From Candidatus Latescibacterota bacterium (lineage in GTDB: Bacteria > Latescibacterota > UBA2968 > UBA8231), in the NCBI GenBank assembly GCA_965206595.1, contig OZ242214.1:6528001-6592000 (forward strand): a DNA stretch of 64,000 bases. The letters are read 5' to 3'. The stretch's first letter is position 1; each line of letters starts with the position of its first letter. Positions 39,409-62,755 of the stretch are shown in pieces. The position numbers and the translations under genes were made by a program. The notes beneath the pieces were generated by a model. It was not told the origin of the DNA. It saw only the letters and a list, made by a program, of their open reading frames with translations, and did not search any database.

Positions 39409-39574
39409 GGGAATCCGTCGATTCGTCGATGTGGGCTCTATTCGGTGCGGGCGACAACTTATTCAGGTCCCCGCCCCGAGGCAACGCGGTTGCCCCGAGC
39501 CGGGGACTGACTACACTCAGGGAGCATCGGGAATCGCCTGACCCCGCAACAGGAACAGCAACAGGGAAGGAAAC

Positions 39575-40882
39575 ATGTCCGTCCGACAACTGGCGTCCCC
39601 CGAAGAGCTCGCCGATTGGGTAAGAGACGCCAGGGAGCGCACCTTCGAGCTCGTCGCCGATCTCAGCGACGGGCAGCTGATGGGCCCGGAGCTCTCCACC
39701 GTCAACCCCGGCCTCTGGGAGATGGGGCACCACGCCTGGTTTCAGTCGCTGTGGGCGCTCCGGCACGCCTGCGGCGAGCGCCCCGTCCGCGAGGACGAGG
39801 ACGCCCTCTACGACTCGATGGAAATCGCCCACGACACGCGCTGGGGTCTGCCGCTGCCCTCGCGCGAAGAGACCCTCGAGTACATGCGCGAGGTCCGCGA
39901 CCGCCTGTTGCGGCACCTCGCAGGCGACCCTTCGGAAGAACTGCTGTACCACGCCCTCTACAGCACCCTGCACGAGGACATGCACACCGAGGCCTTCACG
40001 TACACCCGCCAGACCCACGGCTACCCGCGGCCAGGGCTGACCGGCTTCGACGGGACCGGGACCCCGGGGGGCGGCCCCCTGCCGGGGGACGTCGAGATCC
40101 CTGGGGGCTCCTTCATGCTCGGGTCGACGCCGGAGGAGCCGTTCGTGTTCGACAACGAGAAGTGGGTGTTCGCGGTGGAGCTCGAGGCCTTCCGCATCGC
40201 CCGCGCCTGCGTCACCCAGGCGGAGTACGCCGCCTTCGTCGACGACGGCGGCTACGGAAGGCGGGAGCACTGGTGCGGCGAAGGCTGGGAGTGGCTGCAG
40301 CAAAGCAACGCCGCCGGCCACCGCTACTTTCGCCGGGCAGGCCGCGGATGGGAGCGCCGGCACTTCGATTCCTGGGTAGCGCTCGAGCCGGACAAGGCCG
40401 TCATCCACGTCAACTGGTTCGAAGCGGACGCGTACTGCCGCTGGGCCGGCAGGCGCCTGCCGGCCGAAGCGGAGTGGGAGGCCGCGGCCACTACAGAGCC
40501 CGGACCGCGCGGTCTCGGTAACGGCGCGGCCAAGCGCCGCTATCCCTGGGGCGACCGCCCGCCGGCGCCCGACCTGGCCAACCTAGACTGGCGCGGCATG
40601 GGGACCGTCGACGTCGGCGCCTACCCAGCCGGCGACAGCGCCCACGGCTGCCGCCAGATGATCGGCAACGTCTGGGAATGGACGAGCTCCGATTTCCAGC
40701 CCTTCCCCGGATTCACTCCGGATCCGTACAAGGATTACTCCGAGCCCTGGTTCGGCACCCGCAAGGTGATGCGCGGCGGCGGCTGGGCGACGCGCTCGCG
40801 GCTGATCCGCAGCAACTACCGCAACTTCCAGACCCCGGACCGCGGCGACGTCCTCACCGGGTTCCGCACGTGCGCCCTGTGA
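39575..40882 (+). CDS. senA: Selenoneine synthase SenA (EgtB-like DinB_2 + FGE-fold)
   Basis: WEMGHHAWFQ and HEDMHTE metal-binding His residues, LYDS, FVFDNEK, HVNWFEA, RLPAEAEWE, GNVWEW, YKDYSEPWF and GFRTC. Adjacent to senB and selD. Confidence 0.88.
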   Translation: MSVRQLASPEELADWVRDARERTFELVADLSDGQLMGPELSTVNPGLWEMGHHAWFQSLWALRHACGERPVREDEDALYDSMEIAHDTRWGLPLPSREETLEYMREVRDRLLRHLAGDPSEELLYHALYSTLHEDMHTEAFTYTRQTHGYPRPGLTGFDGTGTPGGGPLPGDVEIPGGSFMLGSTPEEPFVFDNEKWVFAVELEAFRIARACVTQAEYAAFVDDGGYGRREHWCGEGWEWLQQSNAAGHRYFRRAGRGWERRHFDSWVALEPDKAVIHVNWFEADAYCRWAGRRLPAEAEWEAAATTEPGPRGLGNGAAKRRYPWGDRPPAPDLANLDWRGMGTVDVGAYPAGDSAHGCRQMIGNVWEWTSSDFQPFPGFTPDPYKDYSEPWFGTRKVMRGGGWATRSRLIRSNYRNFQTPDRGDVLTGFRTCAL

Positions 40883-41042
40883 CCGCGGCCCTGCTGCCCG
40901 GGGGAGGCGCAACCGGGAGTCCGGGCAGCCAGAGCAGCGCGGAGCGGCTACCTGGGTTCCCCGGATTCGCCACTCCCGGGAAGAGCGGCGGCCGCAAGCG
41001 GCGGGTGGCCCCGGGATTCCCCGGGCGCCGGGAGCGAACCCC

Positions 41043-42008
41043 ATGAGGATCCTCATCGTCACCCCGGCCCCCCCCGGCTCGCGCAAGGGGAACCGGGTCA
41101 CGGCGATGCGCTGGCGGCGTATCCTGCGGGAGCTCGGACATACCGTCGCCGTGGCCGAGGAGTTCGGGCGCCAGCACTGCGACCTGCTGGTGGGGCTGCA
41201 CGCGCGGCGTTCGGCCGCGTCCCTGGCGCGCTTCGCCGCCGCCCACCCGGAACGGCCCATCGTCCTGGCGCTGACCGGCACCGACCTCTACCGCGACATC
41301 CAAACCGACCCCGAGGCGCGGAGATCCCTCGAGCTGGCCGACCGCTGCGTCGTGCTGCAGGAGCTGGGAGCCGCGGCCCTGCCCGAGCGGTTCCGGGGCC
41401 GGGCCCGCGTCATCTACCAGTCGATCGTTCCTCCGAGCCGCGAACCCTCCTCGCGGGCCCGCACCTTCAACCTCTCCGTGGTCGGCCACCTGCGCCCGGT
41501 CAAGGACCCGTTCCGCGCCGCCGAGGCCAGCCGCCTGCTGCCGCCCGGCTCGCGCATCCGGGTGCGCCATGCCGGCGCCGCGCTCAGCGACGACATGGCG
41601 GTCCGGGCGCTGCGGGAGCAGCGGGAAAACCGGCGCTACCGCTGGCTCGGGGAGCTGCCGCGCTGGCGCGCGATGCGCGAGATCGCCCGCAGCCGCGCCC
41701 TCGTGCTGACCTCGGAAATGGAGGGGGGCGCCCACGTCGTCTGCGAGGCCCTCGCCTGCGGGGTGCCGGTGCTTTCCACCCGCATCGACGGATCGGTGGG
41801 CATCCTCGGGGAGGAGTACCCCGGGTACTTCCCGGTCGGAGACACCCGCGCCCTCGCCGACCTGATGCTGCGCTGCGAAGAGGACGACTTGTTCCTGCGC
41901 CGGCTGCGCCGGCACTGCTCCGAACGGGCGGCGCTGGTCGATCCGGAGCGGGAGCGGCGCTGCTGGGAGGAGCTGCTCGCCGAGATGGCGGTTCCGCCAT
42001 CCCGCTGA
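41043..42008 (+). CDS. senB: Selenosugar synthase SenB (GT4-like)
   Basis: IVTPAPPGSRKGNRVTAMRW, LHARRS, LTGTDLY, GHLRPVKDP, SEMEGGAHV and GILGEEYPGYFPVGD motifs. Confidence 0.92.
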   Translation: MRILIVTPAPPGSRKGNRVTAMRWRRILRELGHTVAVAEEFGRQHCDLLVGLHARRSAASLARFAAAHPERPIVLALTGTDLYRDIQTDPEARRSLELADRCVVLQELGAAALPERFRGRARVIYQSIVPPSREPSSRARTFNLSVVGHLRPVKDPFRAAEASRLLPPGSRIRVRHAGAALSDDMAVRALREQRENRRYRWLGELPRWRAMREIARSRALVLTSEMEGGAHVVCEALACGVPVLSTRIDGSVGILGEEYPGYFPVGDTRALADLMLRCEEDDLFLRRLRRHCSERAALVDPERERRCWEELLAEMAVPPSR

Positions 42009-43349: not shown

Positions 43350-44549
43350 ATGCAACAAGTGCTCGAGACTCTAACCGTCAGGACATTCAAATCCCTGGAG
43401 GACATGACCGTCGAATTGGGATTGGTCAATGTCTTCATTGGCGCCAACGGAAGCGGAAAGAGCAACTTGCTCGAGGCCTTGGGGGTACTCTCTGCGGCCT
43501 CGGATGGCAAGGTCGATGATCAAAGCTTGTTGGCCCGTGGTGTTCGTCCCGGCCTTCCCGCGCTTTTCAAGTCCGCCTTCCCCGGTAGAGACGGAAAGAA
43601 AATCCCACCACATCTGTATTTCGGGGCCCGCAGCGGGGGAGCGAAATACGAAGTTTCCCTGCACAATCCGCTTAATGATCCGGCGCCGGCCTGGAAATTC
43701 AAGACAGAGCGGTGGGAAGGTGACAACATCACATATGTTGGTCGTTCACCCGCACAAGGCAAAAAAACCAATCCCGAACGGGGGCTAGCTGCACTGAAGG
43801 CCGTGGAAGTCGACAGCGGTGCAGCTCTGGATCTCTTAAAGTTGCTGCAGGGCTACGTCATTTTTTCCCCGACAACACCTGTATTGCGCGGCGTTGCACC
43901 GGAAACGCAACCAAGACAGCCCGTTGGCTTGTCTGGCGGGAACCTGCCGCAAGCAATAAAGGAGCTACTTAAACAACGTGGAGAGGATCAAAACAGTAAA
44001 CAGATTTGCAGGGATGCCCTGAGACTTGTCGATTGGGCGGTGAGCTATGGGTATACATCTTCTTCTGAATTAGCTCTCTCTCCTGCTGCAGCTGCATCGG
44101 ATTCCGTGATTCGTTTTCGCGACAAATTCATGCGAGATGGGCGAAATGGACTTTCGGGCTATGACGCTTCCGAAGGGGCCTTGTACGTTCTGTTTCTCGC
44201 GGTGATTTCCGGTCACCCGAAAAGTCCTCGATTATGTGCCGTAGACAATGCGGATCACGGATTGAACCCCAGGTTGGCCCGGTCCTTGATGGAGCACCTG
44301 TGCCGGTGGTACCTGGAAGCAGAAGAGCCACGACAGATCCTGCTGACGACGCACAATCCACTGGTTCTGGATGGGCTTCCATTACAGGATGACCGCGTGC
44401 GTCTGTTCGCCGTGTCCCGAACCAACTCGGGCCGCACTTCCGTCAGGCGCGTGGTCGTCGATGAGAGCATGAGGGAAAAAGCGGAGCAGGGCTGGACCTT
44501 GTCTCGACTGTGGGTGATGGGTCACCTGGGGGGTGTCCCGGATGTCTGA
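43350..44549 (+). CDS. ABC-type (AAA_15/AAA_21) ATPase
   Basis: FKSL, VFIGANGSGKSNLLEAL, SEG signature, variant Walker B AVDNADHGLNP, and TTHNP. Lower GC. Confidence 0.85.
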   Translation: MQQVLETLTVRTFKSLEDMTVELGLVNVFIGANGSGKSNLLEALGVLSAASDGKVDDQSLLARGVRPGLPALFKSAFPGRDGKKIPPHLYFGARSGGAKYEVSLHNPLNDPAPAWKFKTERWEGDNITYVGRSPAQGKKTNPERGLAALKAVEVDSGAALDLLKLLQGYVIFSPTTPVLRGVAPETQPRQPVGLSGGNLPQAIKELLKQRGEDQNSKQICRDALRLVDWAVSYGYTSSSELALSPAAAASDSVIRFRDKFMRDGRNGLSGYDASEGALYVLFLAVISGHPKSPRLCAVDNADHGLNPRLARSLMEHLCRWYLEAEEPRQILLTTHNPLVLDGLPLQDDRVRLFAVSRTNSGRTSVRRVVVDESMREKAEQGWTLSRLWVMGHLGGVPDV

Positions 44550-45252
44550 ACCGCTGCGTATCGCCGTTGCCGTCGAAGGACCTACTGACGCAATCGTGCT
44601 GAGGGCGATCCTGGACGCCTTGTTGCCGAGAACCGAATTCATTTTCCAGACCTTGCAGCCGGAAGAATCCAGCGCCTTTGATACGGGGACATCAGGAAAA
44701 ACAGGTGTTGGGTGGGTCGGAGTCTATCGCTGGTGCCGTCAATCCGCTTCGGAAGGAGGAGGTTCCGTGTCCGGTTCTTCGGTCCTTCTTTTTCATGACC
44801 TGTTGATCATCCAGGTAGACGCGGACGTTGCAGGAACAAATTATTGCAGTGGAAGTATTCGAGACGCACCGCGCAATGATTTGCCTTGTGAAAAACCCTG
44901 TCCACCACCAAATAGAACTACGGATGCCTTGCGACCGGTTGTGCTCAACTGGCTCGGCGAATTTAAGTGTCCTCCGAAGGTGGTATTATGCACCCCTTCC
45001 AAGAATATCGAGGCTTGGGTGGTTGCTGCCGTCTGGCCCAACAATTCCCTGGTCCAACGCAACGACTGGGAATGCCGCCCCAATCCGGAAGCTCAACTAG
45101 GGAATCTTCCCAAGGCAAAGCAGTTTGGGAAACGCCCGGACGACTATGAAGCCAAGCGGGAGGAGATGAGGAAGGCGTGGCCGTGCGTGGCCTCACGCCT
45201 GACTGAGGCGGCGCGATTTGAAAGGGAATTCCTGGCGGCTATTCCCACTTGA
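44542..45252 (+). CDS. Hypothetical TOPRIM-like partner protein (DUF4276-like)
   Basis: Overlaps the ATPase stop. VEGPTD, VDAD and IEAW motifs. Confidence 0.6.
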   Translation: MSEPLRIAVAVEGPTDAIVLRAILDALLPRTEFIFQTLQPEESSAFDTGTSGKTGVGWVGVYRWCRQSASEGGGSVSGSSVLLFHDLLIIQVDADVAGTNYCSGSIRDAPRNDLPCEKPCPPPNRTTDALRPVVLNWLGEFKCPPKVVLCTPSKNIEAWVVAAVWPNNSLVQRNDWECRPNPEAQLGNLPKAKQFGKRPDDYEAKREEMRKAWPCVASRLTEAARFEREFLAAIPT

Positions 45253-46247: not shown

Positions 46248-46679
46248 ATGAGCTGCGAAACTACCCCCCATCCTGCCCGCTGTTCCTGGATCTGCCACCC
46301 TCTCTTCGAAGAGCCTTGGCCGAAATCCGCGGCTTTGGTGGCGGCGATTTTCGCCTTCTCCGCCCTCGCCGCGGTCGCTTTCGAGGGGCTCCTGTACGGC
46401 GCCATCGCCCTCGCCGTTCTCAGCGGGTCGATGTCGCGGTTCCTCCTGCCGACCCGCTACGAGATCGGCGCCGCCGGAATCACCGTGAGCCACCTGTTCC
46501 GGCGGCGGCTGCGAGCCTGGAAGGAGATACGCCGCGTCGAGGTCCGCGATGACGGGCTTTTCCTCAGCCCGTTCGCCCGTCCCAGCCGGCTGGACAGCTA
46601 CCGCGGTTTATTTCTGCCGGCCGCCGGGGTCGGGGTGGAAAAGCTCGAGGAACTGGTCGGACGGCATGTCCCGGGTTGA
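46248..46679 (+). CDS. Small membrane protein with two TM helices and a possible PH-like domain
   Basis: Two TM helices, then FLLPTRY..., LSPF..PSRLDSYRG. First gene of the GlmL-like operon. Confidence 0.65.
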   Translation: MSCETTPHPARCSWICHPLFEEPWPKSAALVAAIFAFSALAAVAFEGLLYGAIALAVLSGSMSRFLLPTRYEIGAAGITVSHLFRRRLRAWKEIRRVEVRDDGLFLSPFARPSRLDSYRGLFLPAAGVGVEKLEELVGRHVPG

Positions 46680-47028
46680 GCGGCTGCGGGCCTGGTGGTC
46701 GCACGCCTTCGCCGTCGAAGAAGCTGCCGACCGCGACATCGACAAGCCGGAGCGGGAGCTGATCGAACGGGTCGCCGACTTTCTCGGGGGCCGCGGACTG
46801 ACGGCACCTGCCGTCATGCTGCTCGAAGTGGGGCGACCGCTCAACTTCGTCGGCAGCCAGCTGCTCCTCTTCCTGAGTCCCTTCATCTCGCTGATCTTCA
46901 ACCCCGACGAGCTGAAACGTTTCACCCGGCTGCTCGCCAAGCGCCGCTCCATCGACGCCCTTGTCGAAGCCATCTCGAGCCGAGGCGGCCGGGGCTGGAA
47001 GCGGGACTCGGACGCGGACCGGCAGTAG
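46666..47028 (+). CDS. Conserved hypothetical protein
   Basis: ATG at 46666 overlaps the upstream stop. GLTAPAVMLLE..RPLNFVGSQ...FLSPF. Confidence 0.65.
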   Translation: MSRVERLRAWWSHAFAVEEAADRDIDKPERELIERVADFLGGRGLTAPAVMLLEVGRPLNFVGSQLLLFLSPFISLIFNPDELKRFTRLLAKRRSIDALVEAISSRGGRGWKRDSDADRQ

Positions 47029-47046
47029 GGCAGGATCGAACCTGTA

Positions 47047-48879
47047 ATGGACGTCTTCATCGCCACCGACTGCGGCAGCACCACGACCAAGGCGATCCTC
47101 ATCGAGCGCCAGGCGGACGGAATCTGCCGGCAGACCTTCCGGGGCGAGGCCCCGACCACGGTCGAGGCCCCCTTCGAGGACGTCACGCGCGGCGTGCTCA
47201 ACGCCATATCCGAGGTGGAGGAGCTGTCGGGGCGGACGATCCTCGACGGGGAGCGGATCATCACCCCGGCCGCGGGCGACCGCGGCGTCGACATCTACAT
47301 CTCGACGAGCAGCGCCGGCGGCGGCCTGCAGATGATGGTCGCGGGGGTGGTCGCCTCGATGACGGGGGAAAGCGCGCAGCGCTGCGCTCTCGGAGCCGGG
47401 GCCATCGTCATGGACGTCCTCGCCGCCAACGACCGCCGGCTCCCCCATGAGAAGATCGAACGCATCCGCCGGCTGCGGCCGGACATGTTCCTGCTTTCCG
47501 GCGGCACCGACGGCGGCACCGTCTCCCACGTCGTCGAGCTCGCCGAGTTCATCGCCGCGGCCGACCCCAGACCGAGGTTCGGCAGCGGCTTCCGGCTCCC
47601 TCTCATCTACGCGGGGAATCGCGACGCCCGCCCAGAGATCGAAAAGGTGCTTGCGGAGAGAACCTCCCTGACCGTCACCGAGAACCTGCGGCCGGTGCTC
47701 GAGAGGGAGAACCTCGGACCCGCCCGGCATGTGATCCACGACCTCTTTCTCGAGCACGTGATGGCGCAGGCCCCGGGGTACCGCAAGCTGATGTCCTGGA
47801 CCGGTGCGCCGATCGTGCCGACCCCGGCCGCGGTGGGCCGAATCATCCAGACCATCGCCCGCCTCCGGGACATCGACGTCATCGGCGTCGACATAGGCGG
47901 CGCCACCACCGATGTCTTCAGCGTCTTCCGCCCCTCCGACGACGCCGGCACGGACCGGGAAGAGCCGGTCTTCAACCGCTCGGTCAGCGCCAACCTCGGC
48001 ATGTCGTACAGCATCTCCAACGTCCTCAACGAGGCCGGCCTGGAGAACGCCATGCGCTGGATACCTTTCGACATCGACGAGACCGACCTGCGCGACCGCA
48101 TCAAGAACAAGATGATCCGGCCGACCACCATACCGCAGCAGCTCGAGGAGCTGCAGCTCGAGCACGCCCTGGCGCGCGAGGCCCTGCGACTCGCCTTGGT
48201 CCAGCACCGCGCCCTCGCCGTCGGTCTCAAGGGGGTGCAGTCGGAACGCACCCTGTCCGACGTCTTCGAGCAGTCGGCGACCGGGGAATCCCTGATCGAC
48301 ATGGCGGCCCTCGACCTTCTCGTCGGCAGCGGCGGGGTGCTCTCCCACGCCCCGCGCCGGGTGCAGGCCGCGGCGATGCTGATCGACGCTTTCCAGCCTG
48401 CGGGGATCACCCGCCTCGCCGTCGACAGCATATTCATGATGCCCCACCTCGGGGCCCTGGCGGCGCTGGACGAACAGGCCGCCTCCGACGTCTTCGAGCG
48501 CGACTGCCTGATCGATCTCGGCACCTGCGCGGCACCAGCAGGCAGCGGCAGGCAGGGGGAGGCCTGCTGCGAGTTCAGCCTCACCGGCGCCGCGTCCGGG
48601 GAGGTGTCCGGCCAACTGCGGATGGGTGAACTGGTGCGGATCGAGTTCGCGGACGGCGAGGAGGCCGAGCTATCCCTCGAGCCTGCCCGGGGCTGGGACG
48701 CCGGGGCGGGCAGCGGGCGGGCGGTGCATGCGCGGGTGCGCGGAGGCGCTGCCGGCCTAGTGCTCGACGGGCGCGGGCGGCCGATCCAGTTCGCCGCGTC
48801 GGCCGCGGAGCGCCGCGAACAGGTGAAGGCCTGGAGCGAGGCCCTCGGATCCTACCCCGAGGGCGGAGAGCCGGGCTGA
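47047..48879 (+). CDS. GlmL-like (glutamate mutase L family) actin-fold ATPase
   Basis: DCGSTTTKA (phosphate 1), SSAGGGL, GGTDGG, PTP, VDIGGATTDVFS (phosphate 2) and GSGGVL. Confidence 0.85.
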   Translation: MDVFIATDCGSTTTKAILIERQADGICRQTFRGEAPTTVEAPFEDVTRGVLNAISEVEELSGRTILDGERIITPAAGDRGVDIYISTSSAGGGLQMMVAGVVASMTGESAQRCALGAGAIVMDVLAANDRRLPHEKIERIRRLRPDMFLLSGGTDGGTVSHVVELAEFIAAADPRPRFGSGFRLPLIYAGNRDARPEIEKVLAERTSLTVTENLRPVLERENLGPARHVIHDLFLEHVMAQAPGYRKLMSWTGAPIVPTPAAVGRIIQTIARLRDIDVIGVDIGGATTDVFSVFRPSDDAGTDREEPVFNRSVSANLGMSYSISNVLNEAGLENAMRWIPFDIDETDLRDRIKNKMIRPTTIPQQLEELQLEHALAREALRLALVQHRALAVGLKGVQSERTLSDVFEQSATGESLIDMAALDLLVGSGGVLSHAPRRVQAAAMLIDAFQPAGITRLAVDSIFMMPHLGALAALDEQAASDVFERDCLIDLGTCAAPAGSGRQGEACCEFSLTGAASGEVSGQLRMGELVRIEFADGEEAELSLEPARGWDAGAGSGRAVHARVRGGAAGLVLDGRGRPIQFAASAAERREQVKAWSEALGSYPEGGEPG

Positions 48880-50006
48880 TGGCGCACGCCTACACCCCGG
48901 GCCTGCGCGTCAGCGCCCACACGAAACTGCGGAAAACGCGGCGCTTGCCCCTGGCCGGCGAGCTCGCGGTGCGTCTCGGCGACCGCGTCGCCCGCGACCA
49001 GGTCGTGGCGCGCACCGAGCTGCCGGGAGACGCGGTGACCCAGAACCTCGTCAACCGGCTCGGCGTCACCGCGGCCGACCTGCCACACTACATGCTGAAA
49101 CAGGAGGGGGACCCGGTGCGGGAGGGGGAGCCGCTGGCCGAGACGCGGCCCTGGATCAAGTGGTTCAAGACCGTTGTCCCCGCCGAGACCGACGGCGTCG
49201 TCGAGAGCATCTCCTCGGTGACCGGCCAGGTGCTCTTGCGCAAGCCTCCGTCGAGCGTCGAGATTCCCGCCTTCGTCGACGGGGTGGTCGCCGAGGAGCT
49301 GCCAGGGGAAGGGGTCGTCGTCGAGACGGAAGGGGCCTACGTGCAGGGGATCTTCGGCGTCGGCGGAGAGCGCTGGGGGCCGCTTCGGGTCCTGTCGCAG
49401 ACCCACGACCAACCGCTTCAGGCAGGCCGGATCGACGAGAGCTGCCGCGGTGCCGTGCTGGTCGCCGGCGGCATCGCCGGCATCGAGGCGCTGGAGAAGG
49501 CCGCCGGGGCAGGCGCCGCCGGGGTGATCGCCGGCGGCATCCACGACCGCGATCTCAAGGAGTTGCTCGGCTACGACCTCGGCGTCGCCATCACCGGCAC
49601 CGAGGATATCGGCACCACCCTGATCGTCACCGAGGGGTTCGGAGAGATAGCCATGGCGCGCAATACCTTCGACATCCTGCGCTCGTGCGACGGCATGCAG
49701 GCCTCGATCTCCGGGGCGACGCAGATCCGCGCCGGGGTCCAGCGGCCCGAGATCCTGATCCCCTCCCCGAGCCCGGAGCGGGCCGAGGCAACCGCGGCCA
49801 AAGAGAACCCGGGAGGCATGGCCGAAGGGGACGCCCTGCGCGTCATTCGCGCCCCTCACTTCGGGAGAGTCGCCCGGGTGCGCGCCCTCGTCCCGGAGCT
49901 CCGGGAGATCGAAAGCGGCGCCCGGGTGCGGGTGCTCGAGGTCGAGTTCGAAGATGGAACCCGGGCGATCGTCCCGCGCGCCAACGTCGAGCTGATCGAG
50001 GAGTGA
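48879..50006 (+). CDS. Conserved hypothetical protein with barrel-sandwich-hybrid-like repeats and a C-terminal KOW/SH3-like domain
   Basis: AYTPGL, V..GD.V repeats, DGVVESIS, VQGIFGVGG, AITGTE, TEGFG, GATQIRAGVQRPE and VPRANVE. Translationally coupled to the GlmL-like gene. Confidence 0.7.
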   Translation: MAHAYTPGLRVSAHTKLRKTRRLPLAGELAVRLGDRVARDQVVARTELPGDAVTQNLVNRLGVTAADLPHYMLKQEGDPVREGEPLAETRPWIKWFKTVVPAETDGVVESISSVTGQVLLRKPPSSVEIPAFVDGVVAEELPGEGVVVETEGAYVQGIFGVGGERWGPLRVLSQTHDQPLQAGRIDESCRGAVLVAGGIAGIEALEKAAGAGAAGVIAGGIHDRDLKELLGYDLGVAITGTEDIGTTLIVTEGFGEIAMARNTFDILRSCDGMQASISGATQIRAGVQRPEILIPSPSPERAEATAAKENPGGMAEGDALRVIRAPHFGRVARVRALVPELREIESGARVRVLEVEFEDGTRAIVPRANVELIEE

Positions 50007-50194
50007 GGATGGTGGGATTCTCCAGGTCCGACAGCGCCCAGCCCAAGGGCAACTTCAATCCGAATACACCGGGAACGGAATCTGCTCCTCGCGCAAGGGG
50101 CGGGTCTCGAACGCACAACCGCGGAATCTGCCGGACGCGGCCGAAGCTTATGCAGCTGACTTCAGCCAGCTGCAGCGAACATGGTATTTATTGA

Positions 50195-51394
50195 ATGAAA
50201 TCCTCCGGCCTGCTGCTGCTCTTCCTGCTTCCGTCCCTGGCCTGGGGACAGGCCGCGGCGCCGCCCCCCTTCGAGGCCTTCGACACCCCGAACGACGGCG
50301 GCAAAAGCATCACCGTTACCTGGCCGCTCGATGAGGCCGCCCCCAGGGACGCCGTATACAATATTTACGTCGCCGAGCTCGCCACCGGGCCGTTCCACCT
50401 GGCCGCCTCGGTTCCCGCCGCCGGCGGCCTGCAGTCGGAAGACCGCTCGGTCTTCGGCTTCGGCCCGGAGACCTCGCGGCACCAGTTCGCTCACATCGAG
50501 AAATACGAAGTCGACGGCGAGGCCGTGGCCCTGAAAAGCGACACCCCCTACTACCTCCGCGTGGGGGTGCGAACCGCCGCCGGGGAAGGCCGCGGGCAGG
50601 TGGTCGAGGCGACCGCGACCGCACAGCTGTTGGACTGGAGCAAGCTCAACAACCTCCTCCTCGGTCTGGCGCTGTCCGCCGCCATCCTGATCTCGATCTC
50701 GATGGCCAAAAGGAAGGACCTCTTCGTGCGCCGCATCGCCGGGCTCGAGGCGCTCGACGAGGCGCTGGGCCGCGCCACCGAGATGGGCAGGTCGGTGCTC
50801 TTCATCCACGGCCTTCGCGAGATGAACGCGATCTCCACCATCGCCGCAGTCAACATCCTCGGCCGCGTCGCCCGCCGCACCGCGGAGTACGACACCCTGC
50901 TGAAGGTGACCAACGCCGACCCGGTGGTGATGTCGGTCAGCCAGGAGACGGTGAAGGAGGCGTACATCGAGGCGGGGCGGCCGGACGCCTTCAACCCGGA
51001 CAACATCTTCATCGCCGGAACCGACCAGTTCAGCTACGCCGCCGCGGTCGACGGGATCATGGTGCGCGAAAAACCGGCCGCCCACATCATGATGGGGTAT
51101 TTCTACGCCGAGTCGCTGCTGCTCGCCGAGACCGGGGCCTCCACCGGGGCGATCCAGATCGCCGGAACCGACGCCTTCACGCAGCTCCCGTTCTTCGTCA
51201 CCACCTGCGACTACACCCTCCTCGGCGAGGAGCTGTACGCCGCCAGCGCCTACCTGTCTCGCGAGCCCCGGCTGCTCGGCAGCCTGAAGGGGCAGGACAT
51301 CGGCAAGGGACTGCTGCTGTTCGTCCTGATTACCGGCTCGCTGCTGGCGACGGCCGGAATCCCCTGGCTCACGCACCTGTTCACCGCTTTGTAG
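50195..51394 (+). CDS. DUF6754-like membrane protein with N-terminal FN3-like domain
   Basis: Signal peptide, DTPNDGG..YYLRV, a TM helix, VRRIAGLEALDEALGRATEMG, FYAESL, QIAGT, QLPFF, CDYTLLGEELYAASAYL and a C-terminal TM helix. Confidence 0.75.
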   Translation: MKSSGLLLLFLLPSLAWGQAAAPPPFEAFDTPNDGGKSITVTWPLDEAAPRDAVYNIYVAELATGPFHLAASVPAAGGLQSEDRSVFGFGPETSRHQFAHIEKYEVDGEAVALKSDTPYYLRVGVRTAAGEGRGQVVEATATAQLLDWSKLNNLLLGLALSAAILISISMAKRKDLFVRRIAGLEALDEALGRATEMGRSVLFIHGLREMNAISTIAAVNILGRVARRTAEYDTLLKVTNADPVVMSVSQETVKEAYIEAGRPDAFNPDNIFIAGTDQFSYAAAVDGIMVREKPAAHIMMGYFYAESLLLAETGASTGAIQIAGTDAFTQLPFFVTTCDYTLLGEELYAASAYLSREPRLLGSLKGQDIGKGLLLFVLITGSLLATAGIPWLTHLFTAL

Positions 51395-51399
51395 GCTGG

Positions 51400-51442
51400 A
51401 GAAATGCTGTTTCCGAGCCGCACTCTTCCGGTACTGGCCGCC
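51400..51442 (+). repeat. 43-bp direct repeat, copy 1 (copy 2 at 52999-53041), equal to the 5' end of the gene at 53003
   Basis: agaaatgctgtttccgagccgcactcttccggtactggccgcc vs agaaatgctgtttctgagccgcactcttccggtactgaccgcc (41/43 identical). Confidence 0.9.
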
Positions 51443-51476
51443 GGCATACTGCTTGTACCCCAAGGAGGATAACAAT

Positions 51477-52648
51477 ATGCAAATGACATCGTCACCCGCT
51501 GCCGTCGTCCCTTCGGCATACGCCGAGAGTTATGCAAAGGCCCGCCTCCAAGACCAGGCAGCGGCCGACAACTATATCAAGCACACCACCATTGGCGACC
51601 CCGTGCTTGATCCGGTGATGGAGGAGTTGTCCTCGCTGCCTCCTGGTGATTTGCACAGGTTCATCAAGGCTGGCATAGAACAGCAGGATGAGGTTCTGCG
51701 CCGTGCACCGCAGCCGCTGCGCGATTTTTTAAAAATGTGGAAGACCCTCCCTGGTTCGACTATGAAGTCTTTCGGCCAGGGATCAATGCCTTCCACGCAA
51801 ATGTAGATCTCATGCTCGTGGCCTTCGTTACGGGGGTGCTGGTGGAAGGCTTTTCGACGCTTATCGCCAAGTCTTTCAGTATTACTGAGCGAGTGTCGTC
51901 AACCAAAAGACGCCTGCAGCAAAATAACCGCCACATGATGGACATATTTTTTCCCGGTGGCTTGCACAGAGAGAACGATGGATGGAAGCTATCCACGCGC
52001 ATTCGCTTCGTTCATACTCGAATAAGGCATCTGCCGGCGAAATCCGACGATTGGGATCACGAAGCCTGGGGCACGCCCGTAAGTGCGGCGCATCTGGGTT
52101 TTGCCATCTCCGTCTTTTCCAAGCGTCTGTTGGAATACTCGGAATTGGTGGGCGCGCGTTTCAGCGAGGAAGAAAAGAAGAGTGTTCTCGATGTTTGGCG
52201 CTACAGCGGCTATCTCATGGGAATACCTGAGACCATCCTCTATGCCGACGCCGCGGATGCGGAAGAAGTTTACAAGATCAGCTATATGTGCGAGCCGCCG
52301 ACGGACACCGCTTCGATAGCTGTTGCGAATGGGTTGATCCAGGCCATTCCTTCAGTTGCGGATGTAAAGGATCCAGTTGAAGTAGAGAAATTGACACATT
52401 TGGCCTATCGCCTTTCACGCGCACTCATTGGAAACAAACTCGCCAACTCGTTCCAGTTTCCAAAGACCAGGAATCTGGGAACACTGTTTAATTACCGGAT
52501 GAAACAACGCCTTCTGAGAGTGCTACAGAGAAAACAGGTTAGATTAAATAATTTTACTCAACTTCTCCAAATCTCGGTGTACGATGAGGATGGATTGAGT
52601 TACAGGCTGCCCGACCATGTAAAACACGCACTGTCAAACAAGTGGTGA
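51477..52648 (+). pseudogene. MpaB/Lcp-like (DUF2236) oxygenase, frameshifted at about 51725-51735
   Basis: AGGAGG RBS then ATG 51477. GDPVLD and APQPLRDF, then in the -1 frame PPWFD, RIRFVHTRIR, W...WGTPVS and WRYSGYLMGIPE. One extra T in the T6 run joins the two frames. Confidence 0.75.
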
Positions 52649-52818
52649 ACGGCGCTATGCGCTGTGATGCGGCCACCTCTATCCGGTAAATAAGCAATCA
52701 GGAAATCGGTCAGGTTGATCGAAGTTATCTACAGTTAGTGGCGTCGATAGTGCCATGCACTCGTATTGGCAAGCGAGTCGCCGCACCCCAACCCGGGATG
52801 GTCGAAGGAGTGACACTT

Positions 52819-52998
52819 TTGCAATTGGACCGTTCTTCCGCTGCCATTTTGCGCTATCGATGGTTGGTCATCGCGCTCGCAACACTGGTCATGCTGGCAC
52901 TGACGGCAGGAGTTCGCTTCATCACCGTTACAAACGATTATCGCATTCTGTTTAGCGAAGACAATCCGCAACTCCTCGCATTCGGCTTTGCAGGGTGA
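52819..52998 (+). pseudogene. N-terminal fragment of an MMPL/RND-type exporter
   Basis: AAGGAG RBS. ILRYRWLVIALATLVMLALTAGVRFITVTNDYRILFSEDNPQLLAF ends at the 43-bp repeat. Confidence 0.7.
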
Positions 52999-53041
52999 AG
53001 AAATGCTGTTTCTGAGCCGCACTCTTCCGGTACTGACCGCC
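52999..53041 (+). repeat. 43-bp direct repeat, copy 2
   Basis: Same alignment as copy 1. Contains the ATG at 53003. Confidence 0.9.
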
Positions 53042-53659
53042 TTCGCCTTCGGCGTCGTCGGGGTGGCGATCTTCTACATACCGCACCCGGCCGCGCAGGA
53101 GGTCGAGCGCGAGCTGGCCCTGTGGCTGCGCATCGCCTTCGCCTTCGCCTACTTCCTCGGGCTCTTCAGCCTGCTCAACCTGCACTGGAGCCGCATCCGG
53201 CAGCGGGTCGCCGGCTGGGGGTACAACGCCGTCGCCCTGGCGAGCTTCGGCGTCATGTTCCTCTTCGTCGTCCACAACGACGGCGCCGGACCGTTCGCCC
53301 CGCAGGCCCAGGAAGGGGCCTACCAGTGGATGTTCCAGTACGTCCACATCCCGTGCACGGCGACGATGTTCTCGATGCTCGCCTTCTTCATTGCTTCTGC
53401 GGCGTACCGCACCTTCCGCGCCCGCAGCGCCGATGCCGCCATCCTCCTCGTGGCCGCGGTCATCGTCATGGTCGGCCGCGTCCCGATCGGAGCCCTGATC
53501 TCCGACGCGCTTCCCGCCCTTTCCGACTGGCTGATGTCGGTGCCCAACCTCGCGGCCAAGCGCGGCATTCTGCTGGGGGTGAGCCTCGGCGCCATCGCCA
53601 CCTCGCTGCGCATCATCTTCGGCATCGAACGATCCTACGTCGGAGGCGGTGAGGAATGA
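53003..53659 (+). CDS. Conserved hypothetical integral membrane protein (GlmL-like operon)
   Basis: Multiple TM helices. PCTATMFSMLAFFIASAAYRTFR, GRVP and PNLAAKRGI...GIER motifs. Confidence 0.75.
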   Translation: MLFLSRTLPVLTAFAFGVVGVAIFYIPHPAAQEVERELALWLRIAFAFAYFLGLFSLLNLHWSRIRQRVAGWGYNAVALASFGVMFLFVVHNDGAGPFAPQAQEGAYQWMFQYVHIPCTATMFSMLAFFIASAAYRTFRARSADAAILLVAAVIVMVGRVPIGALISDALPALSDWLMSVPNLAAKRGILLGVSLGAIATSLRIIFGIERSYVGGGEE

Positions 53660-54492
53660 TCGACCGGCTTCTCGGCATCGACCGCCGCATCATCTTCGCC
53701 GCCGTCTTCCTCGGGGTCGCCATACCCCTGCTGACCGATCTGCAGTTCCCGGTCAAACCCAGGAAACAGGTGACGGCGGTGTTCGACGAGATCGAAAAAG
53801 TCGCGGGTAAAGAAGACCCCCTCGTCCTGCTCTCCTTTACCTACGGAGCCAGCACCGAACCGGAAATGCAGCCGATGGCCAAGGCCCTGCTGCGTCACCT
53901 CTTCAGCCGCGACGTCGCCGTCGTCGCCGTCTGCCTGTGGCCGGAAGCGCCCGGTCTCGCCCAGCTGGCCCTCGAGGAGACCGCGGCGGAGTTCGCAAAG
54001 ACCTACGGCGAGGATTACGCCTTCATGGGGTACAAGCCCGGCACCTACAGCGTCATCATCAACATGGGTCAGGATTTCGCCGACGCCTTCCCCAAGGACA
54101 ACTGGGGGACCGCCACCTCCGAGGTGCCGCTGACCGCCGGCGTCGCCGGTCTCTCCGACTTCGACCTGGTGATCGACCTGGCGGCCGGGGATTCGATCGA
54201 GTTCTGGTGGCTGCCGTTCGGGCAGGAGAGGCACAACCTCGCCTTCGCCGCGGGCTGCACCGCGGTGATGGCCCCCGATCTCTACCCGTTCCTGCAGTCG
54301 GGGCAGATGCGCGGCCTCATCGGTGGGCTCGTCGGCGCCGCCGAATACGAAAAGCTGATCGGCCATCCGGGTGGAGCGACCGCGGGAATGAGCCCCCAGT
54401 CGGTCACCCACCTGATCATCGTCTTCTTCATCCTGGTCGGGAACGCCGCCTATTTCGCGGCTAGGCACCGGCAGCGGAGGCGGCCGGAATGA
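53656..54492 (+). CDS. Conserved hypothetical membrane-anchored alpha/beta protein (GlmL-like operon)
   Basis: N- and C-terminal TM helices. E.QP, YGEDYAFMGYKPG and GCTAVMAP.LYPF.QSGQ..G..GG..GAAEYE motifs. Confidence 0.72.
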   Translation: MIDRLLGIDRRIIFAAVFLGVAIPLLTDLQFPVKPRKQVTAVFDEIEKVAGKEDPLVLLSFTYGASTEPEMQPMAKALLRHLFSRDVAVVAVCLWPEAPGLAQLALEETAAEFAKTYGEDYAFMGYKPGTYSVIINMGQDFADAFPKDNWGTATSEVPLTAGVAGLSDFDLVIDLAAGDSIEFWWLPFGQERHNLAFAAGCTAVMAPDLYPFLQSGQMRGLIGGLVGAAEYEKLIGHPGGATAGMSPQSVTHLIIVFFILVGNAAYFAARHRQRRRPE

Positions 54493-55214
54493 ATCGCGAT
54501 TCCATCCTGTTCCTCGCCGTTCTCCTGTTCTTCGCCGCGGCCAACGCCTACCTGTTCGCCGCCGGCAAGCTCAGCCCCGACTGGACCGGCTTCGGGATAA
54601 TCGTCGCCGCCGGCCTGACCCTGGCGCTCTACAGCTTCCTCTACCGCGACAACCCCTTCTTCAAGCTCGCCGAGCACGTCTTCGTCGGCGTCGCCGCGGC
54701 CTACGTGTTCGGCCAGACCTGGTACCCGACCATCTACGGCGAGGTGATCGACAAGCTCACCGGGCTGGGTGAAGCCGGCGCCTGGGAGGGAAACGCCTGG
54801 CTCGTGCTGTTCCCGACCGCGCTCGGGATCCTGATGCTGACCCGGTTCAGCACCCGCATCGGCTGGACCAGCCGCATCGCCTTCGGGTTCATCTTCGGCC
54901 TGGGGGCCGGGTTCACGATCCCGGCCTACATCTCGACGTTCATCCTGAAACAGGTGGAACCGACCCTGCAGCCGATCACCCTGTCCTGGGCCGGGCTCGA
55001 CCTGTTCATCATCCTCGTCGGCGTCGTTTCGGTGCTGGTCTACTTCTTCTTCTCCGTCGAGCACCGCGGCGCCGTCGGCATGGTCTCGAAGCTGGGGATC
55101 TGGGTGCTGATGATCTCTTTCGGCGCCTCCTTCGGGTACACGATCATGGCGCGGCTGTCGCTGCTTATCGGGCGTGTGAGGTTCCTTCTCGGCGACTGGC
55201 TGAACCTGATGTAG
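54489..55214 (+). CDS. Conserved hypothetical integral membrane protein (GlmL-like operon)
   Basis: Multiple TM helices. SFLYRDNPFFKLAEHVFVG, YFFFS and FGASFGYTIMAR motifs. Confidence 0.75.
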   Translation: MNRDSILFLAVLLFFAAANAYLFAAGKLSPDWTGFGIIVAAGLTLALYSFLYRDNPFFKLAEHVFVGVAAAYVFGQTWYPTIYGEVIDKLTGLGEAGAWEGNAWLVLFPTALGILMLTRFSTRIGWTSRIAFGFIFGLGAGFTIPAYISTFILKQVEPTLQPITLSWAGLDLFIILVGVVSVLVYFFFSVEHRGAVGMVSKLGIWVLMISFGASFGYTIMARLSLLIGRVRFLLGDWLNLM

Positions 55215-59791: not shown

Positions 59792-62290
59792 TCACCCCAC
59801 CTCGACTTGATCAGGTCCGCAGCTGATTACGGCACCCGGATGACTCAGCGCCAACCCCTTGCTCAGGTCCTGCTGCTGCCAGGGCGCCCCGTGGACCAGG
59901 GCGATCTGCTTCGGCTTGAGCATGGACGCGTACTCGAGCAGCCCGGGCCGGTCGGCATGGGCGGAAAGCCCGAACTGCTTGGCCGGCATCGCGGCCTTGA
60001 ACTTGATCTCCCCTCTCTCTCCCTGCAGGCGAACGACCCGCGGACCTCCGGAGCCGGAGATGTCGAGCAACGCCCTGCTGGGCGCGCCCTCGTCCTGGTA
60101 GCCGGTGAGGACGATGCGGTGGCGGGCATCGGGAAGCAGGTGACGGGCGTACTCGACCACCGGACCGCCGGTGAGCATCCCCGACGTCGTCACTATGATC
60201 GACGGTATCTTCTGGGCTTCGCGGGCGATTTCATCCCGGCCTGTTTCGCCATGCACCTCGAGGACGGCATCCTGCGGCAAATCGAAATCAGAATGTTCGC
60301 GATAGACAGGGTTGATGGACTTTATCATCCCGTCGACGAAAACCGGGACGTCATCCCGGAGATCTCCCTCCTCCTTCGCCCTGAGTATCAACTTCAGCAG
60401 CTCCTGGGCTCGCCCCAGCGCGAACGAGGGGAGGATCACCGACCCCTTGCGGTTCTCCGTCGTATCCCTGATGAAGTCGACGAGCTCGGCCCGGGTCGAC
60501 TCGGGCTCCTGGTGTTTGGAGTTCCCGTACGTCGATTCCAGGACAAGGAGGTCGACCTCGCCGAGATCCTCGGGCCAGCTCGCGGCCGGAACGGTCAGTT
60601 GGGGAAATGAGGAGAAATCACCCGAGAAGAAAACACGGCGCCCGGTCTCCTCCTCGATAAGGAGGCTGGCGGCGCCGAGAATATGGCCTGCGGGGAAGAA
60701 CCGGATCGAGGCGCCGGGGAACGGCAGGGCCTTCTCGCTCCCGAACTCGCAGGCGAGCGCTAGCTCGGGCACCCGGCGCACGTCATCCCCCCCGTAACTG
60801 GCGACCACCTCCTCGGCATTGGCGATATGTTGCGCCTGCTCGCTGCGGATCGCCAGCTGGCGAACGTAGCGGGAGTGACCGTCTTCCAGCATTACCGGAA
60901 GCAGCGCCTTGGTAGCGGGGGAGCAGAAGATGTCGAGCTCGCCGAAGCGGTTTACGAGGGCGGGGATCCAACCGATATGGTCGGTATGCGCGTGCGTGAC
61001 GATGAGAGCATCGATGCGTTCGAGACCGTCGATCGGAGGATTGAACCCGGAAGACCCGCCCGGCTTTATGCCGCAGTCCACGAGAATCCGGCGCTCGCCC
61101 AGCTCGACGAGGTAGCAGCTTCTGCCGATCTCCGCGGATCCGCCGAGGGCGACGAACCGCAGGGAGGTCTTGCGCCGAAGCTTTTTCGGAGCGGCGACCC
61201 GGAACTTGGGATAGGCGTCGAGAAACGCCGACTTCAGCTTGCGATGGAGTCGCCACTCTTCGTCGGCTCGCGCCTTGGGTGAACCGGAGAGAATCAGGCG
61301 GTCCCGCTTGATGCGCTCCTCCTCCTCGTGAAGGAAATGCTGAACTGCCTGATCGCCGCGAGGGAGGTCGCCGAGCCTGGATTCCAGCTCCTTCACCCGC
61401 AACTCCTTGGTGGCGAGCTGCCTGGCGAGATCGCTCCGTTCCGCGGCCAGCTCCCCCTTTTCCCGGTCCAACCGGCGGTGCTCTCGCTGAATGTCCTCCC
61501 TGATCTGCTCCGCCTTGTCGAGATCCCGCTCGATGTTGATGCGGGCGGCATCGGACTTGCGGATCTGCTCCCGGACCCGTTCGACCTCCTCGACGACTCT
61601 CCGGTGCTCCCTTATTTCCTCCCGGTACTCCGCCCTGAGCTTCTCGAGCTCCTGCTCCTTCCGCTGCAAGCTCTTCTCGGCAAGCTCGGAGTTCCGCCTG
61701 GTCTCCCTGTACTCCCTGCTGGTTTTGCGAAGCTCCCTCCTCAGCTTCTTCTCTTCGTCGACACGGGCCGCGCCCTGCCGAAATCCGAGCGAGAGATTGC
61801 CATCCGCAAGAGGTACGAGCAACCGGAAAAGCTCTTCGGCGTCCGGGCCATCGAACCTCGACGCCCAGAGAACCGCGGCCAGGCGGCGCAGGCCCTCCTT
61901 CCTGTCCTGGAGCAAGCCTGACAGCGTCTCACTTTCCAGCAGATTCCCGGTCGCAATCTGCTCGACCAGTTCCTCGTTCTCCCGGCGGATCATCGAGCGG
62001 ATGAAATCGACCAGATCGTGATTGGGATACGCCCATAACAGTCTGTTTACCTCCTGTCTGGCAGTCCGGAACCTGTCCGGACGCATCCCGCGGCGATACC
62101 CCAGGGGAGGAGGCACGTGTCCGCAGTCGAGATTCGGACACTCCTTGGCGTGCTTCACCAGCTCCTCGATGGCAATTTCGATCGGCAGGGCAAGTACGGC
62201 CGGGGGCACCGTCTCCGCTCCCAACCGACCTTCCGGTATGCGGTCGCCGTGGGTAGCCCTGAGAACGGCGAGAGCAGGCGACAGTGTCAT
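59792..62290 (-). CDS. MBL-fold beta-CASP nuclease with a long N-terminal coiled-coil extension
   Basis: LGG..EIGRSC, DCG, THAHTDH, AGHILG, SGD, ESTYG, FALGRAQE, SGML, GYQ, SAHAD and VHG motifs. An E/K/R-rich helical region precedes the nuclease. Start codon uncertain. Confidence 0.85.
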   Translation of the reverse strand: MTLSPALAVLRATHGDRIPEGRLGAETVPPAVLALPIEIAIEELVKHAKECPNLDCGHVPPPLGYRRGMRPDRFRTARQEVNRLLWAYPNHDLVDFIRSMIRRENEELVEQIATGNLLESETLSGLLQDRKEGLRRLAAVLWASRFDGPDAEELFRLLVPLADGNLSLGFRQGAARVDEEKKLRRELRKTSREYRETRRNSELAEKSLQRKEQELEKLRAEYREEIREHRRVVEEVERVREQIRKSDAARINIERDLDKAEQIREDIQREHRRLDREKGELAAERSDLARQLATKELRVKELESRLGDLPRGDQAVQHFLHEEEERIKRDRLILSGSPKARADEEWRLHRKLKSAFLDAYPKFRVAAPKKLRRKTSLRFVALGGSAEIGRSCYLVELGERRILVDCGIKPGGSSGFNPPIDGLERIDALIVTHAHTDHIGWIPALVNRFGELDIFCSPATKALLPVMLEDGHSRYVRQLAIRSEQAQHIANAEEVVASYGGDDVRRVPELALACEFGSEKALPFPGASIRFFPAGHILGAASLLIEEETGRRVFFSGDFSSFPQLTVPAASWPEDLGEVDLLVLESTYGNSKHQEPESTRAELVDFIRDTTENRKGSVILPSFALGRAQELLKLILRAKEEGDLRDDVPVFVDGMIKSINPVYREHSDFDLPQDAVLEVHGETGRDEIAREAQKIPSIIVTTSGMLTGGPVVEYARHLLPDARHRIVLTGYQDEGAPSRALLDISGSGGPRVVRLQGERGEIKFKAAMPAKQFGLSAHADRPGLLEYASMLKPKQIALVHGAPWQQQDLSKGLALSHPGAVISCGPDQVEVG

Positions 62291-62755
62291 CTGCCCCTCC
62301 GGCCGGCTCCGGTATGCTGTTTCGAGGATTCCATCCTGTCCACGCTTAAATCCATTCTCCCTTACTTCGACGCCGCACCGTCCTGGCCGGGTCCTGCCGC
62401 CCTGTCTGCGGTGGTTGAAGTCGCTGTACGGGCGCTGAAATCGAAACGCGGGAAGGCGAATCAGATAGGGTTCAGCGAGCGCAAAGCGGTTGTCGACGGC
62501 ACAGGGCAAGCCTCCCATTACGCCCTGCCTCGCCGGCAGGCAGTCAGCCCGATTGGACGGTGCATATTCGTGCGCCCAAGGGTTGTTTTTCGCGGCGGAT
62601 TATAGCCCCTGAGGCCTGTTCCGGCAAGCAGCGGAAGGGGGGATCCCGGCCTGGAATCGAGGCTTTGCGGCACCCCGCCCCCGGAGAAAACAGGCCTCGC
62701 AGGGGCGCGCCCGGTCCCCGAGGCGCTCGATCTCTTCACCCGCAGGGCGTCTCTC

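Follow-up and report, generated by a model that had tools for sequence, protein, structure and literature searches.

Why does a gene for an actin-fold (ASKHA) ATPase resembling GlmL lie among genes for membrane proteins? The question is raised by a 64,000-nt window of a Candidatus Latescibacterota genome (assembly GCA_965206595.1, contig OZ242214.1, positions 6,528,001 to 6,592,000), in which a preliminary description had pointed out eight genes, here g1 to g8, as an uncharacterised membrane system. We find that this is a real, widespread and uncharacterised system, new as a gene set, for which a mechanism can be proposed. Its core consists of seven genes in two separable modules, a soluble one (g2-g4) that contains the ATPase g3 and a membrane one (g5-g8). 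An ATP-powered primary active transporter with an ASKHA energiser is, tentatively, the most likely single function. The literature on DUF6754, the family of g5, and on the other family accessions showed no function within a coverage that most subscription journals and some supplements lay outside, so the system was rightly called uncharacterised.

A core of seven genes conserved across phyla

Relatives of the DUF6754 domain number at least 8000 at the 90% level and 2143 at the 50% level. The query was aligned with 57 of the 150 representatives listed, and a GTDB scan with this alignment confirmed at least 632 stretches, of which the best 80 make up the set of loci used for the counts below. 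These loci were picked by g5 and by nearness to the query, so that a g3 without a g5 cannot show up among them. They were fetched with 10 kb flanks, the counts cover genes called from profiles within those flanks, and 68 loci had room for neighbour counts. By the record titles of the 80 loci, the carriers span more than 10 phylum-level groups, including Latescibacterota, Nitrospirota, anammox Planctomycetota, Methylomirabilota, Poribacteria and WOR-3.

In this set g5 was followed by g6, g7 and g8, in that order, in 67 of the 68 loci with room, a recurrence far above chance, and g3 and g4 adjoined the membrane module in 50 of the 68. The gene set is therefore conserved as a unit. All of g3-g8 were present in 48/80 loci, on a single strand every time. 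The ATPase gene was accompanied by g4 in 54 loci, and the single locus that departs from this pairing is truncated by the end of its contig; g2 (51/80 loci) was absent beside g3 only where g3 is itself cut off by a contig end. Gene g1, in contrast, was found in 18/80 loci only, mostly Latescibacterota, and its match to bPH_6 (E = 5.9e-4) lies under the Pfam cut-off; what had been described as eight genes thus stands as seven core genes (Table 1). All eight open reading frames (ORFs) are co-oriented, with the starts originally assigned to them. The overlap described for most of them was seen at four of the seven junctions but not at g2-g3, g4-g5 and g5-g6, which are separated by 18, 188 and 1608 nt, the last because an insertion is present (see below). 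The sole locus with room that lacks g6-g8 after g5 lies in a Coatesbacteria metagenome-assembled genome (MAG; L062:8645-10264).

Two copies of g5 occurred in 5/80 loci, and two copies of g3 or g4 in none (0/80). Two of these loci (L024, L079) carry one g3/g4 pair and two entire membrane modules, one (L075) has two membrane modules with no g3/g4 nearby, and in two more (L057, L072), each with one ATPase, the contig ends after the second g5. The paralogous module subunits share just 26-57% identity, which suggests that the duplicated modules differ in specificity. A tandem g7 was seen in L014 and L015.

No neighbouring gene recurred widely across phyla in the 80 loci. The commonest was a Memo-family gene (25 loci, all Nitrospirota by record title). 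In three Latescibacterota loci (L013:4071-8400, L016:4110-8400 and L008:13058-16165) the operon is broken or flanked by oligopeptide ATP-binding cassette (ABC) genes, TonB-dependent receptors and a lipoate-ligase-family gene. In one Nitrospirota MAG (L028:13084-17370) genes for two type II/IV secretion ATPases and a probable pilC come directly after the membrane module. Upstream of the operon in L004 (L004:3094-4462) a short unit recurs in the ORF translations, pointing to a CRISPR-like array. No relative of g5 was found on plasmids.

Table 1 Genes of the system and features of the insertion between g5 and g6. Positions are those of the window; aa, amino acids; TM, transmembrane.
Feature	Position	Strand	Description
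g1	46248..46679	+	143 aa, accessory membrane protein; weak bacterial PH-domain match
g2	46666..47028	+	120 aa, small protein directly 5' of the ATPase gene; core of the soluble module
g3	47047..48879	+	610 aa, ASKHA (actin-fold) ATPase-like; extra C-terminal domain of ~125 aa
g4	48879..50006	+	375 aa, soluble partner: barrel-sandwich hybrid, swivelling beta/beta/alpha, KOW/SH3
g5	50195..51394	+	399 aa: signal peptide, FN3-like ectodomain, TM1, predicted cytoplasmic Rossmann-like DUF6754 domain, TM2
g6	53003..53659	+	218 aa, six predicted TM helices, N-terminus inside
g7	53656..54492	+	278 aa, two TM helices around a ~215 aa domain predicted outside the cytoplasm
g8	54489..55214	+	241 aa, ~6-7 TM helices, rich in conserved Gly
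Direct repeat, left copy	51386..51442	+	57 nt, imperfect: g5 stop, ribosome-binding region, first g6 codons
Low-GC insertion	51443..52984		not part of the system
Direct repeat, right copy	52985..53041	+	57 nt; provides the intact g6 start
MpaB/Lcp-type oxygenase gene, frameshifted	51468-52648		within the insertion; MPAB_Lcp_cat E 3.4e-18
Short 5' gene fragment	52738-52998		86 codons; insertion/right repeat

The ATPase g3 stands apart from GlmL

The g3 protein matched PF13941 at E = 4.9e-128 over residues 5-487, and its Pfam matches were, in all, only MutL, Hydantoinase_A (weak), BcrAD_BadFG and Hydant_A_N. It scored under all three NCBIfam cut-offs, namely those of GlmL (NF040745, 235 vs 475), Or-4 (NF040744, 212 vs 600) and TIGR01319 (176 vs 204). 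The motifs noted at the outset were present, and DCGSTTTK (phosphate-1), DIGGATTD (phosphate-2) and GSGG (adenosine) were invariant in 42/42 g3 sequences; with its nucleotide motifs intact, g3 would be expected to hydrolyse ATP. Identity among g3 proteins was 60-96% (median 67%), and to the GlmL and Or-4 references 25-33%. For a quick tree we took seven references and half (21) of the 42 g3 sequences in the alignment. The tree, midpoint-rooted and with long reference branches, placed all g3 on one side of a branch with a support of 100, with a grouping that largely follows phylum. By these sequence comparisons g3 is a separate, highly conserved GlmL-related clade; the label GlmL-like holds as homology but not as membership.

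No B12-binding GlmS or GlmE was found in the window, as had been stated, by tblastn at E<=1e-3, and queries for GlmS, GlmE and methylaspartate ammonia-lyase had no match at that threshold in the window or the 80 loci. The same queries do match control loci, the GlmS queries even detecting the B12 domain of OraE in control L002. With a mutase gene in 0/80 loci, the system occurs without glutamate mutase genes nearby. True glmL genes sit between glmS and glmE, whereas g3 sits between g2 and g4. A GlmS-like insert, mimicking a B12 domain, in g3 or GlmL was considered and found unsupported (E = 0.07 and 0.03).

The relatives of g3 bring in the strongest rival of the transporter. Here g2-g4 would be a remodelling or reactivating ATPase like GlmL or a dehydratase reactivase, ATP not driving each turnover but assembling g5-g8 or stripping off a spent cofactor or subunit, and g5-g8 would be a membrane enzyme, for example in lipid or envelope modification. 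We consider both the remodelling role and the membrane enzyme unlikely. The closest families of g3 are GlmL and Or-4, and the rival is the strongest because GlmL is described, in the available part of PMC4682846, as a reactivating chaperone, and because the dehydratase reactivase unites a swiveling domain and an ATPase domain of Hsp70-like type (PMC7674605), two domain types that are here divided between g3 and g4. One remodeller could also serve two modules. However, neither the window nor any of the 80 loci contains a gene for a mutase or a B12-binding protein, C208 is the only conserved candidate among His and Cys for a cofactor ligand in the soluble part of g5, and g3 is much more conserved than GlmL (median identities of 67% and 37%). 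No reactivase chain was among the 50 listed fold matches of g4.

Three Cys residues present in 98-100% of the 42 g3 sequences lie at the start of the extra C-terminal domain (residues 487-507, positions 48505-48567). Together with several invariant His residues of g3, they make a metal site possible.

The soluble partner g4 has a swivelling domain

The AlphaFold2 (AF2) model of g4 (predicted local distance difference test score, pLDDT, 86.5; predicted template modelling score, pTM, 0.69) consists of nested barrel-sandwich hybrid motifs, a swivelling beta/beta/alpha domain (~150-297) and a KOW/SH3 domain (313-375). The early guess of a barrel-sandwich and KOW protein was thus borne out by fold matches of the model, which add the swivelling domain. 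The top matches of the latter were phosphohistidine domains of enzyme I and rifampin phosphotransferase (Z 9.0-9.6), with RraA-type folds tied: enzyme I (2wqd) gave Z 9.6 with a root-mean-square deviation (rmsd) of 2.6 over 106 aligned residues, and RraA (3c8o) Z 8.8, rmsd 3.1 over 127. Matches to the NusG KOW domain (Z 9.0) and to the hybrid domains of NqrA/RnfC (Z 7.6-7.7) were accompanied by weak profile matches to Biotin_lipoyl (30/37) and RnfC_N (25/37). These Z values are middling and tied, and they therefore assign a fold and not a function. A match of g4 to NuoG (E = 4.6e-4) in the PDB sequence search was gone when a profile was used, and was taken as chance.

No His is conserved in the swivelling domain. 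Of 42 sequences, 27 have H at position 222, 12 have R and 3 have D, and the only His of g4 conserved at >=80%, H3, lies outside the domain. Neither is there an invariant Lys at the hairpin tip, where K90, K94 and K97 (24, 35 and 35 of 42) become R, G or Q in divergent members. Therefore g4 does not qualify as a carrier protein of the phosphohistidine, biotin or lipoyl type. What is invariant are the loops GxDLGVAITGxE, TEGFG and GATQIRAGVxRPE, in which D223, D233, E242, E252, R284, R289 and E291 cluster. They include stretches modelled at lower confidence (~231-240, 281-290), and from the model we suggest that they become ordered on a partner or ligand.

These features bear on ATP-dependent group transfer or translocation, in which g3 would phosphorylate a substrate or the g4 swivel and the group would be relayed to the membrane module, by analogy with an ATP-fed phosphotransferase system or a hydantoinase/oxoprolinase-type reaction. 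The phosphohistidine fold matches, the weak Hydantoinase_A matches of g3 and the clustered invariant residues of g4 all speak for it. The variable position 222, the RraA-type tie and the lack of an invariant hairpin Lys for biotin or lipoate speak against it, and we regard this reading, analogy included, as improbable.

The membrane module has domains predicted on both faces of the membrane

The g5 protein matched DUF6754 (PF20539) at E = 1e-114, which upholds one half of its description as an FN3 and DUF6754-like protein; the FN3 half has no Pfam support in g5 itself, and the label derives from an Atlas structure match of a g5 homologue to a cluster with PF00041 in 10% of its members. The AF2 model of the g5 core (pLDDT 93.2) shows a TM helix, a six-stranded Rossmann-like domain and a second TM helix. 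Its fold matches were tied at Z 9-10.4 among Sir2, PGK, SDR, RCK/KTN and transhydrogenase, the RCK/KTN proteins KtrC, TrkA, MthK and YbaL scoring 9.1-9.8 in a tie with Sir2, PGK and SDR, and Foldseek with the g5 model gave no match at E<=0.001. Homologues of g5 range from 229 to 1276 aa, with an optional and variable ectodomain that is absent in the second g5 of L024 (262 aa). Beta-propeller matches were found in 11 of the 60 g5 representatives scanned, mostly long ones, and one carried a TctC solute-binding domain.

No family matched g6, g7 or g8 above the Pfam and NCBIfam cut-offs, and they have no solved relative. The PDB sequence search gave nothing usable for these three or for g3, g7 had no Pfam or PDB match at E<0.1, and g2 matched no Pfam or NCBIfam family. 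Relatives of g6 comprise at least 7379 clusters among the 8000 candidates scored, related Atlas clusters in Nitrospirota, Bacillota and Chloroflexota, and a homologue in Kuenenia stuttgartiensis. TM helices are predicted to number six in g6, about six to seven in g8 and about 16 in the module. From the positive-inside pattern, which in g7 includes DRR before TM1 and a basic tail after TM2, the soluble domain of g5 would face the cytoplasm and that of g7 would lie outside it. The only fused form of g7 found was one protein of a Chloroflexota MAG (P0271, 1132 aa), which combines a zinc ribbon and a long linker of acidic repeats with a distant g7-like domain at its end. Inverted paralogy of g5/g7 and g6/g8 was not significant in any hhalign run (E 0.03-0.7, probability <2%); g5 and g7 do align, in the same order, over their first beta-alpha units, which we take as a lead only.

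Residues E62, R222 and R229 of g8 are invariant, and polar or charged positions at or within TM helices are conserved in g8 (E62/R222), g6 (R187), g7 (S249/H252/N263) and g5 (D238/K241). Such residues are what an ion-translocating ATPase or energy-conserving complex might use, a new type of Na+ or H+ pump for energy-limited lithotrophs and anaerobes. The carriers, among them Nitrospira, anammox bacteria and Methylomirabilis, would suit it, as would the likeness of the g4 hybrid domains to those of NqrA and RnfC. Yet no invariant carboxylate is clearly mid-membrane, and there is no c-ring-like subunit and no flavin or Fe-S subunit. We judge such a pump very improbable.

The matching genes are steadily transcribed in Nitrospira moscoviensis

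A cluster in N. moscoviensis, NITMOv2_3303-3297, encodes on one strand proteins of 130, 615, 375, 405, 216, 279 and 247 aa, followed by a Memo gene (PMC6606698, available part). We matched it to g2-g8 on the grounds of gene order, protein lengths and the neighbouring gene rather than sequence, and the arrangement is that of the Nitrospira loci in our set. In the available tables of that source (Table_1), the mean values of NITMOv2_3303-3297 were 169, 241, 269, 253, 160, 109 and 52 reads per kilobase per million (RPKM), against a median of 97.6 and reference values of 278 for mreB and 595 for atpD. All seven genes were thus transcribed, six of them above the median, and levels were stable at three time points on nitrite (PMC6606698). 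Transcripts at about half of atpD or less, with the last gene under the median, do not favour an ion pump.

The RefSeq label of NITMOv2_3302 in the same table is 'methylaspartate mutase' (PMC6606698). As far as the available gene table goes, 'glutamate mutase' has no entry and 'methylaspartate' one, the g3 match itself. In the accessible supplementary data, Kuenenia had only the repair mutL among the matches listed, and 12 of the 15 N. inopinata files had no entry for the system. A 596-aa entry of the N. marina proteome labelled 'DNA mismatch repair protein MutL' was left out of the comparison.

The expression level also bears on an envelope scaffold or motor. In this reading g3, like MreB, FtsA or PilM, would position or pull a membrane complex, and the FN3-like or propeller ectodomain of that complex would hold on to the wall, S-layer or outer membrane. 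Most known actin-fold proteins that associate with membrane complexes are scaffolds or motors of this sort. The matches of g3-g5, at 241-269 RPKM in the accessible data, are near mreB, g5 homologues vary widely in length and ectodomain, and the g3 tree groups largely by phylum, all of which would fit. However, g3 has no MreB, PilM or FtsA match in Pfam and the ectodomain is dispensable, as the second g5 of L024 shows. To our knowledge, divergent duplicated modules and a swivelling domain are not features of MreB, FtsA or PilM scaffolds. Both the positioning role and the gripping ectodomain therefore appear rather unlikely.

A proposed transport mechanism driven by an ASKHA energiser

Judging from gene linkage, g2-g8 probably form a physical ATP-coupled machine. 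As a transporter, it would have a cytoplasmic energiser, made of the g3 ATPase, the hybrid-swivel-KOW arm of g4 and g2, that docks on the g5-g8 membrane module. ATP binding and hydrolysis would open and close the g3 cleft, and g4 and the cytoplasmic Rossmann-like domain of g5 would relay the movement to a g6/g8 core. The solute may be captured or presented by the g7 domain that faces outward and by the variable g5 ectodomain, and a single energiser could serve two divergent membrane modules in the style of energy-coupling factor (ECF) or shared-ATPase ABC transporters. The sequences and models show the gene set and its order, the separable and duplicated modules, the folds of g4 and g5, the intact nucleotide motifs and the lack of mutase genes nearby. 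From these and the positive-inside rule we infer the topology, that the proteins form a physical complex, that g3 hydrolyses ATP, that hydrolysis is coupled to transport, and in which direction transport runs.

In favour of the transporter are the fixed g5-g8 order, the pairing of g3 with g4 and the single ATPase beside duplicated, divergent modules. The invariant g3 motifs, the predicted domains on both membrane faces and the variable ectodomains, TctC among them, agree with it, as does the transcription of all seven matching genes in N. moscoviensis. Some Latescibacterota loci have peptide ABC genes in between those of the system, or TonB-dependent receptors after them, which also fits. No Cys is conserved at 80% in g4, g6, g7 or g8 and only one in g5 (C208), which argues against a redox chain. 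Several observations weigh against it. No subunit matched a known transporter family in the Pfam, NCBIfam and PDB searches, and the proteins most closely related to g3 assist soluble B12 mutases as accessory factors and are no transport ATPases. The membrane module had no g3/g4 in the fetched flank in 18/68 loci, including Poribacteria and WOR-3, where g6-g8 accompany g5 wherever the contig has room, except in L062. The invariant acidic and Arg residues of the g4 swivel fit a catalytic site equally well, no neighbour common across phyla in the 80 loci indicates a substrate, and steady transcription on mineral medium, in the accessible N. moscoviensis data, is unlike substrate-induced uptake. 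On balance the transporter remains our leading, if tentative, reading.

We know of no described primary transporter powered by an actin- or Hsp70-fold ATPase. A transporter class of this kind, which we put forward with some reserve, would be driven by such a fold and not by a P-loop, P-type or rotary ATPase. It would transmit movement through a swivel-domain arm to interchangeable heterotetrameric modules with an alpha/beta domain on each face, possibly of inverted paralogues, and would be old, largely vertical in descent and steadily expressed in nitrifiers. If the transporter is true, it is a new way to couple ATP to membrane transport. Six core proteins without a functional family leave a physiology gap in nitrite oxidisers, comammox and anammox bacteria and many candidate phyla. 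The system also accounts for 'methylaspartate mutase' annotations where a genome lists no mutase, as in the available N. moscoviensis table, and it is testable in that organism through NITMOv2_3303-3297.

An insertion between g5 and g6, and other features of the window

The insertion, absent from the preliminary description, has a GC content of 0.52, against 0.68 for the operon genes, and the direct repeat copies at its ends are 91% identical. The closest relative, the Latescibacterota MAG locus L004, has no insert and one repeat copy, and both flanks match it at 94-96%. The right copy gives an intact g6, whose product shares 96% identity with its L004 counterpart from end to end, and therefore the system is probably unharmed. 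The oxygenase gene is spread over two frames, with the frame shift near a T6-A5 run at ~51726. The 86-codon fragment, which we presumed to be like an MMPL N-terminus, a label no search supports, had no Pfam and no plasmid match. There is no integrase in 51386-53041 and no tRNA in the window to account for the insertion, for which two explanations stand: an integrative element that has decayed, or an artefact of the assembly.

Elsewhere, the window upstream of 46209 did not align with L004. It holds a known system, a selenoneine biosynthesis cluster (38353-42008; selD/senC on the - strand, senA and senB on the + strand, all above NCBIfam cut-offs), and further upstream of that an EgtD-like methyltransferase ORF (31930-32361) and an osmoprotectant-type ABC transporter (28990-31253). 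An AAA_21 ATPase with an overlapping 239-aa partner (43350-45252) has lower GC and is defence-like (weak MADS3 match). Downstream, a 908-aa protein (59792-62518, - strand), conserved in L004, has a beta-CASP nuclease domain fused to a long N-terminal part that is coiled-coil-like, with aCPSF1 and Cas14-type matches under cut-off.

Comparison with known systems

GlmL/MutL (NF040745, TIGR01319, PF13941) is homologous to g3 over ~480 residues (hhalign probability 100, E = 2.9e-63) and shares its ASKHA motifs. However, identity is 25-31%, the scores are under the cut-offs, g3 has its extra C-terminal domain, and the GlmL gene lies between glmS and glmE, not between g2 and g4 beside membrane genes. 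Or-4, of the D-ornithine 4,5-aminomutase operons (NF040744), is likewise a homologous ATPase (29-33% identity), but g3 scores 212 against a cut-off of 600 and the Or-4 partner OraE has no counterpart near g3. The diol/glycerol dehydratase reactivases DdrAB/GdrAB (1NBW) resemble g3 and g4 taken together, with an Hsp70-like ATPase domain plus a swiveling domain (PMC7674605); in them both domains are in one soluble chain and the target is a soluble B12 enzyme. Here there are two proteins, with added hybrid and KOW domains and a membrane module.

The likeness to ECF and shared-ATPase ABC systems is confined to the logic of placing two or more divergent membrane modules next to a single energising module; Pfam finds no P-loop ABC ATPase among g1-g8, and the membrane subunits have no family match. 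MreBCD, FtsA and PilMNOP similarly have an actin-fold ATPase encoded with membrane proteins bearing outward domains, but they belong to another ASKHA branch, give no Pfam match to g3 and differ from it in that g3 has a swivel-domain partner. With Rnf/Nqr the system shares the barrel-sandwich hybrid, found at the N-terminus of RnfC/NqrA, and two subunits of ~6 TM helices, whereas it has no flavin or Fe-S family matches and no conserved membrane Cys, and an ATPase replaces the oxidoreductase. The system thus fails the tested features of GlmL, Or-4, phosphohistidine carriers, ABC/ECF transporters, Rnf/Nqr and MreB-type scaffolds. In its working it would, by analogy, be most like an ECF-style shared-energiser system or a reactivase.

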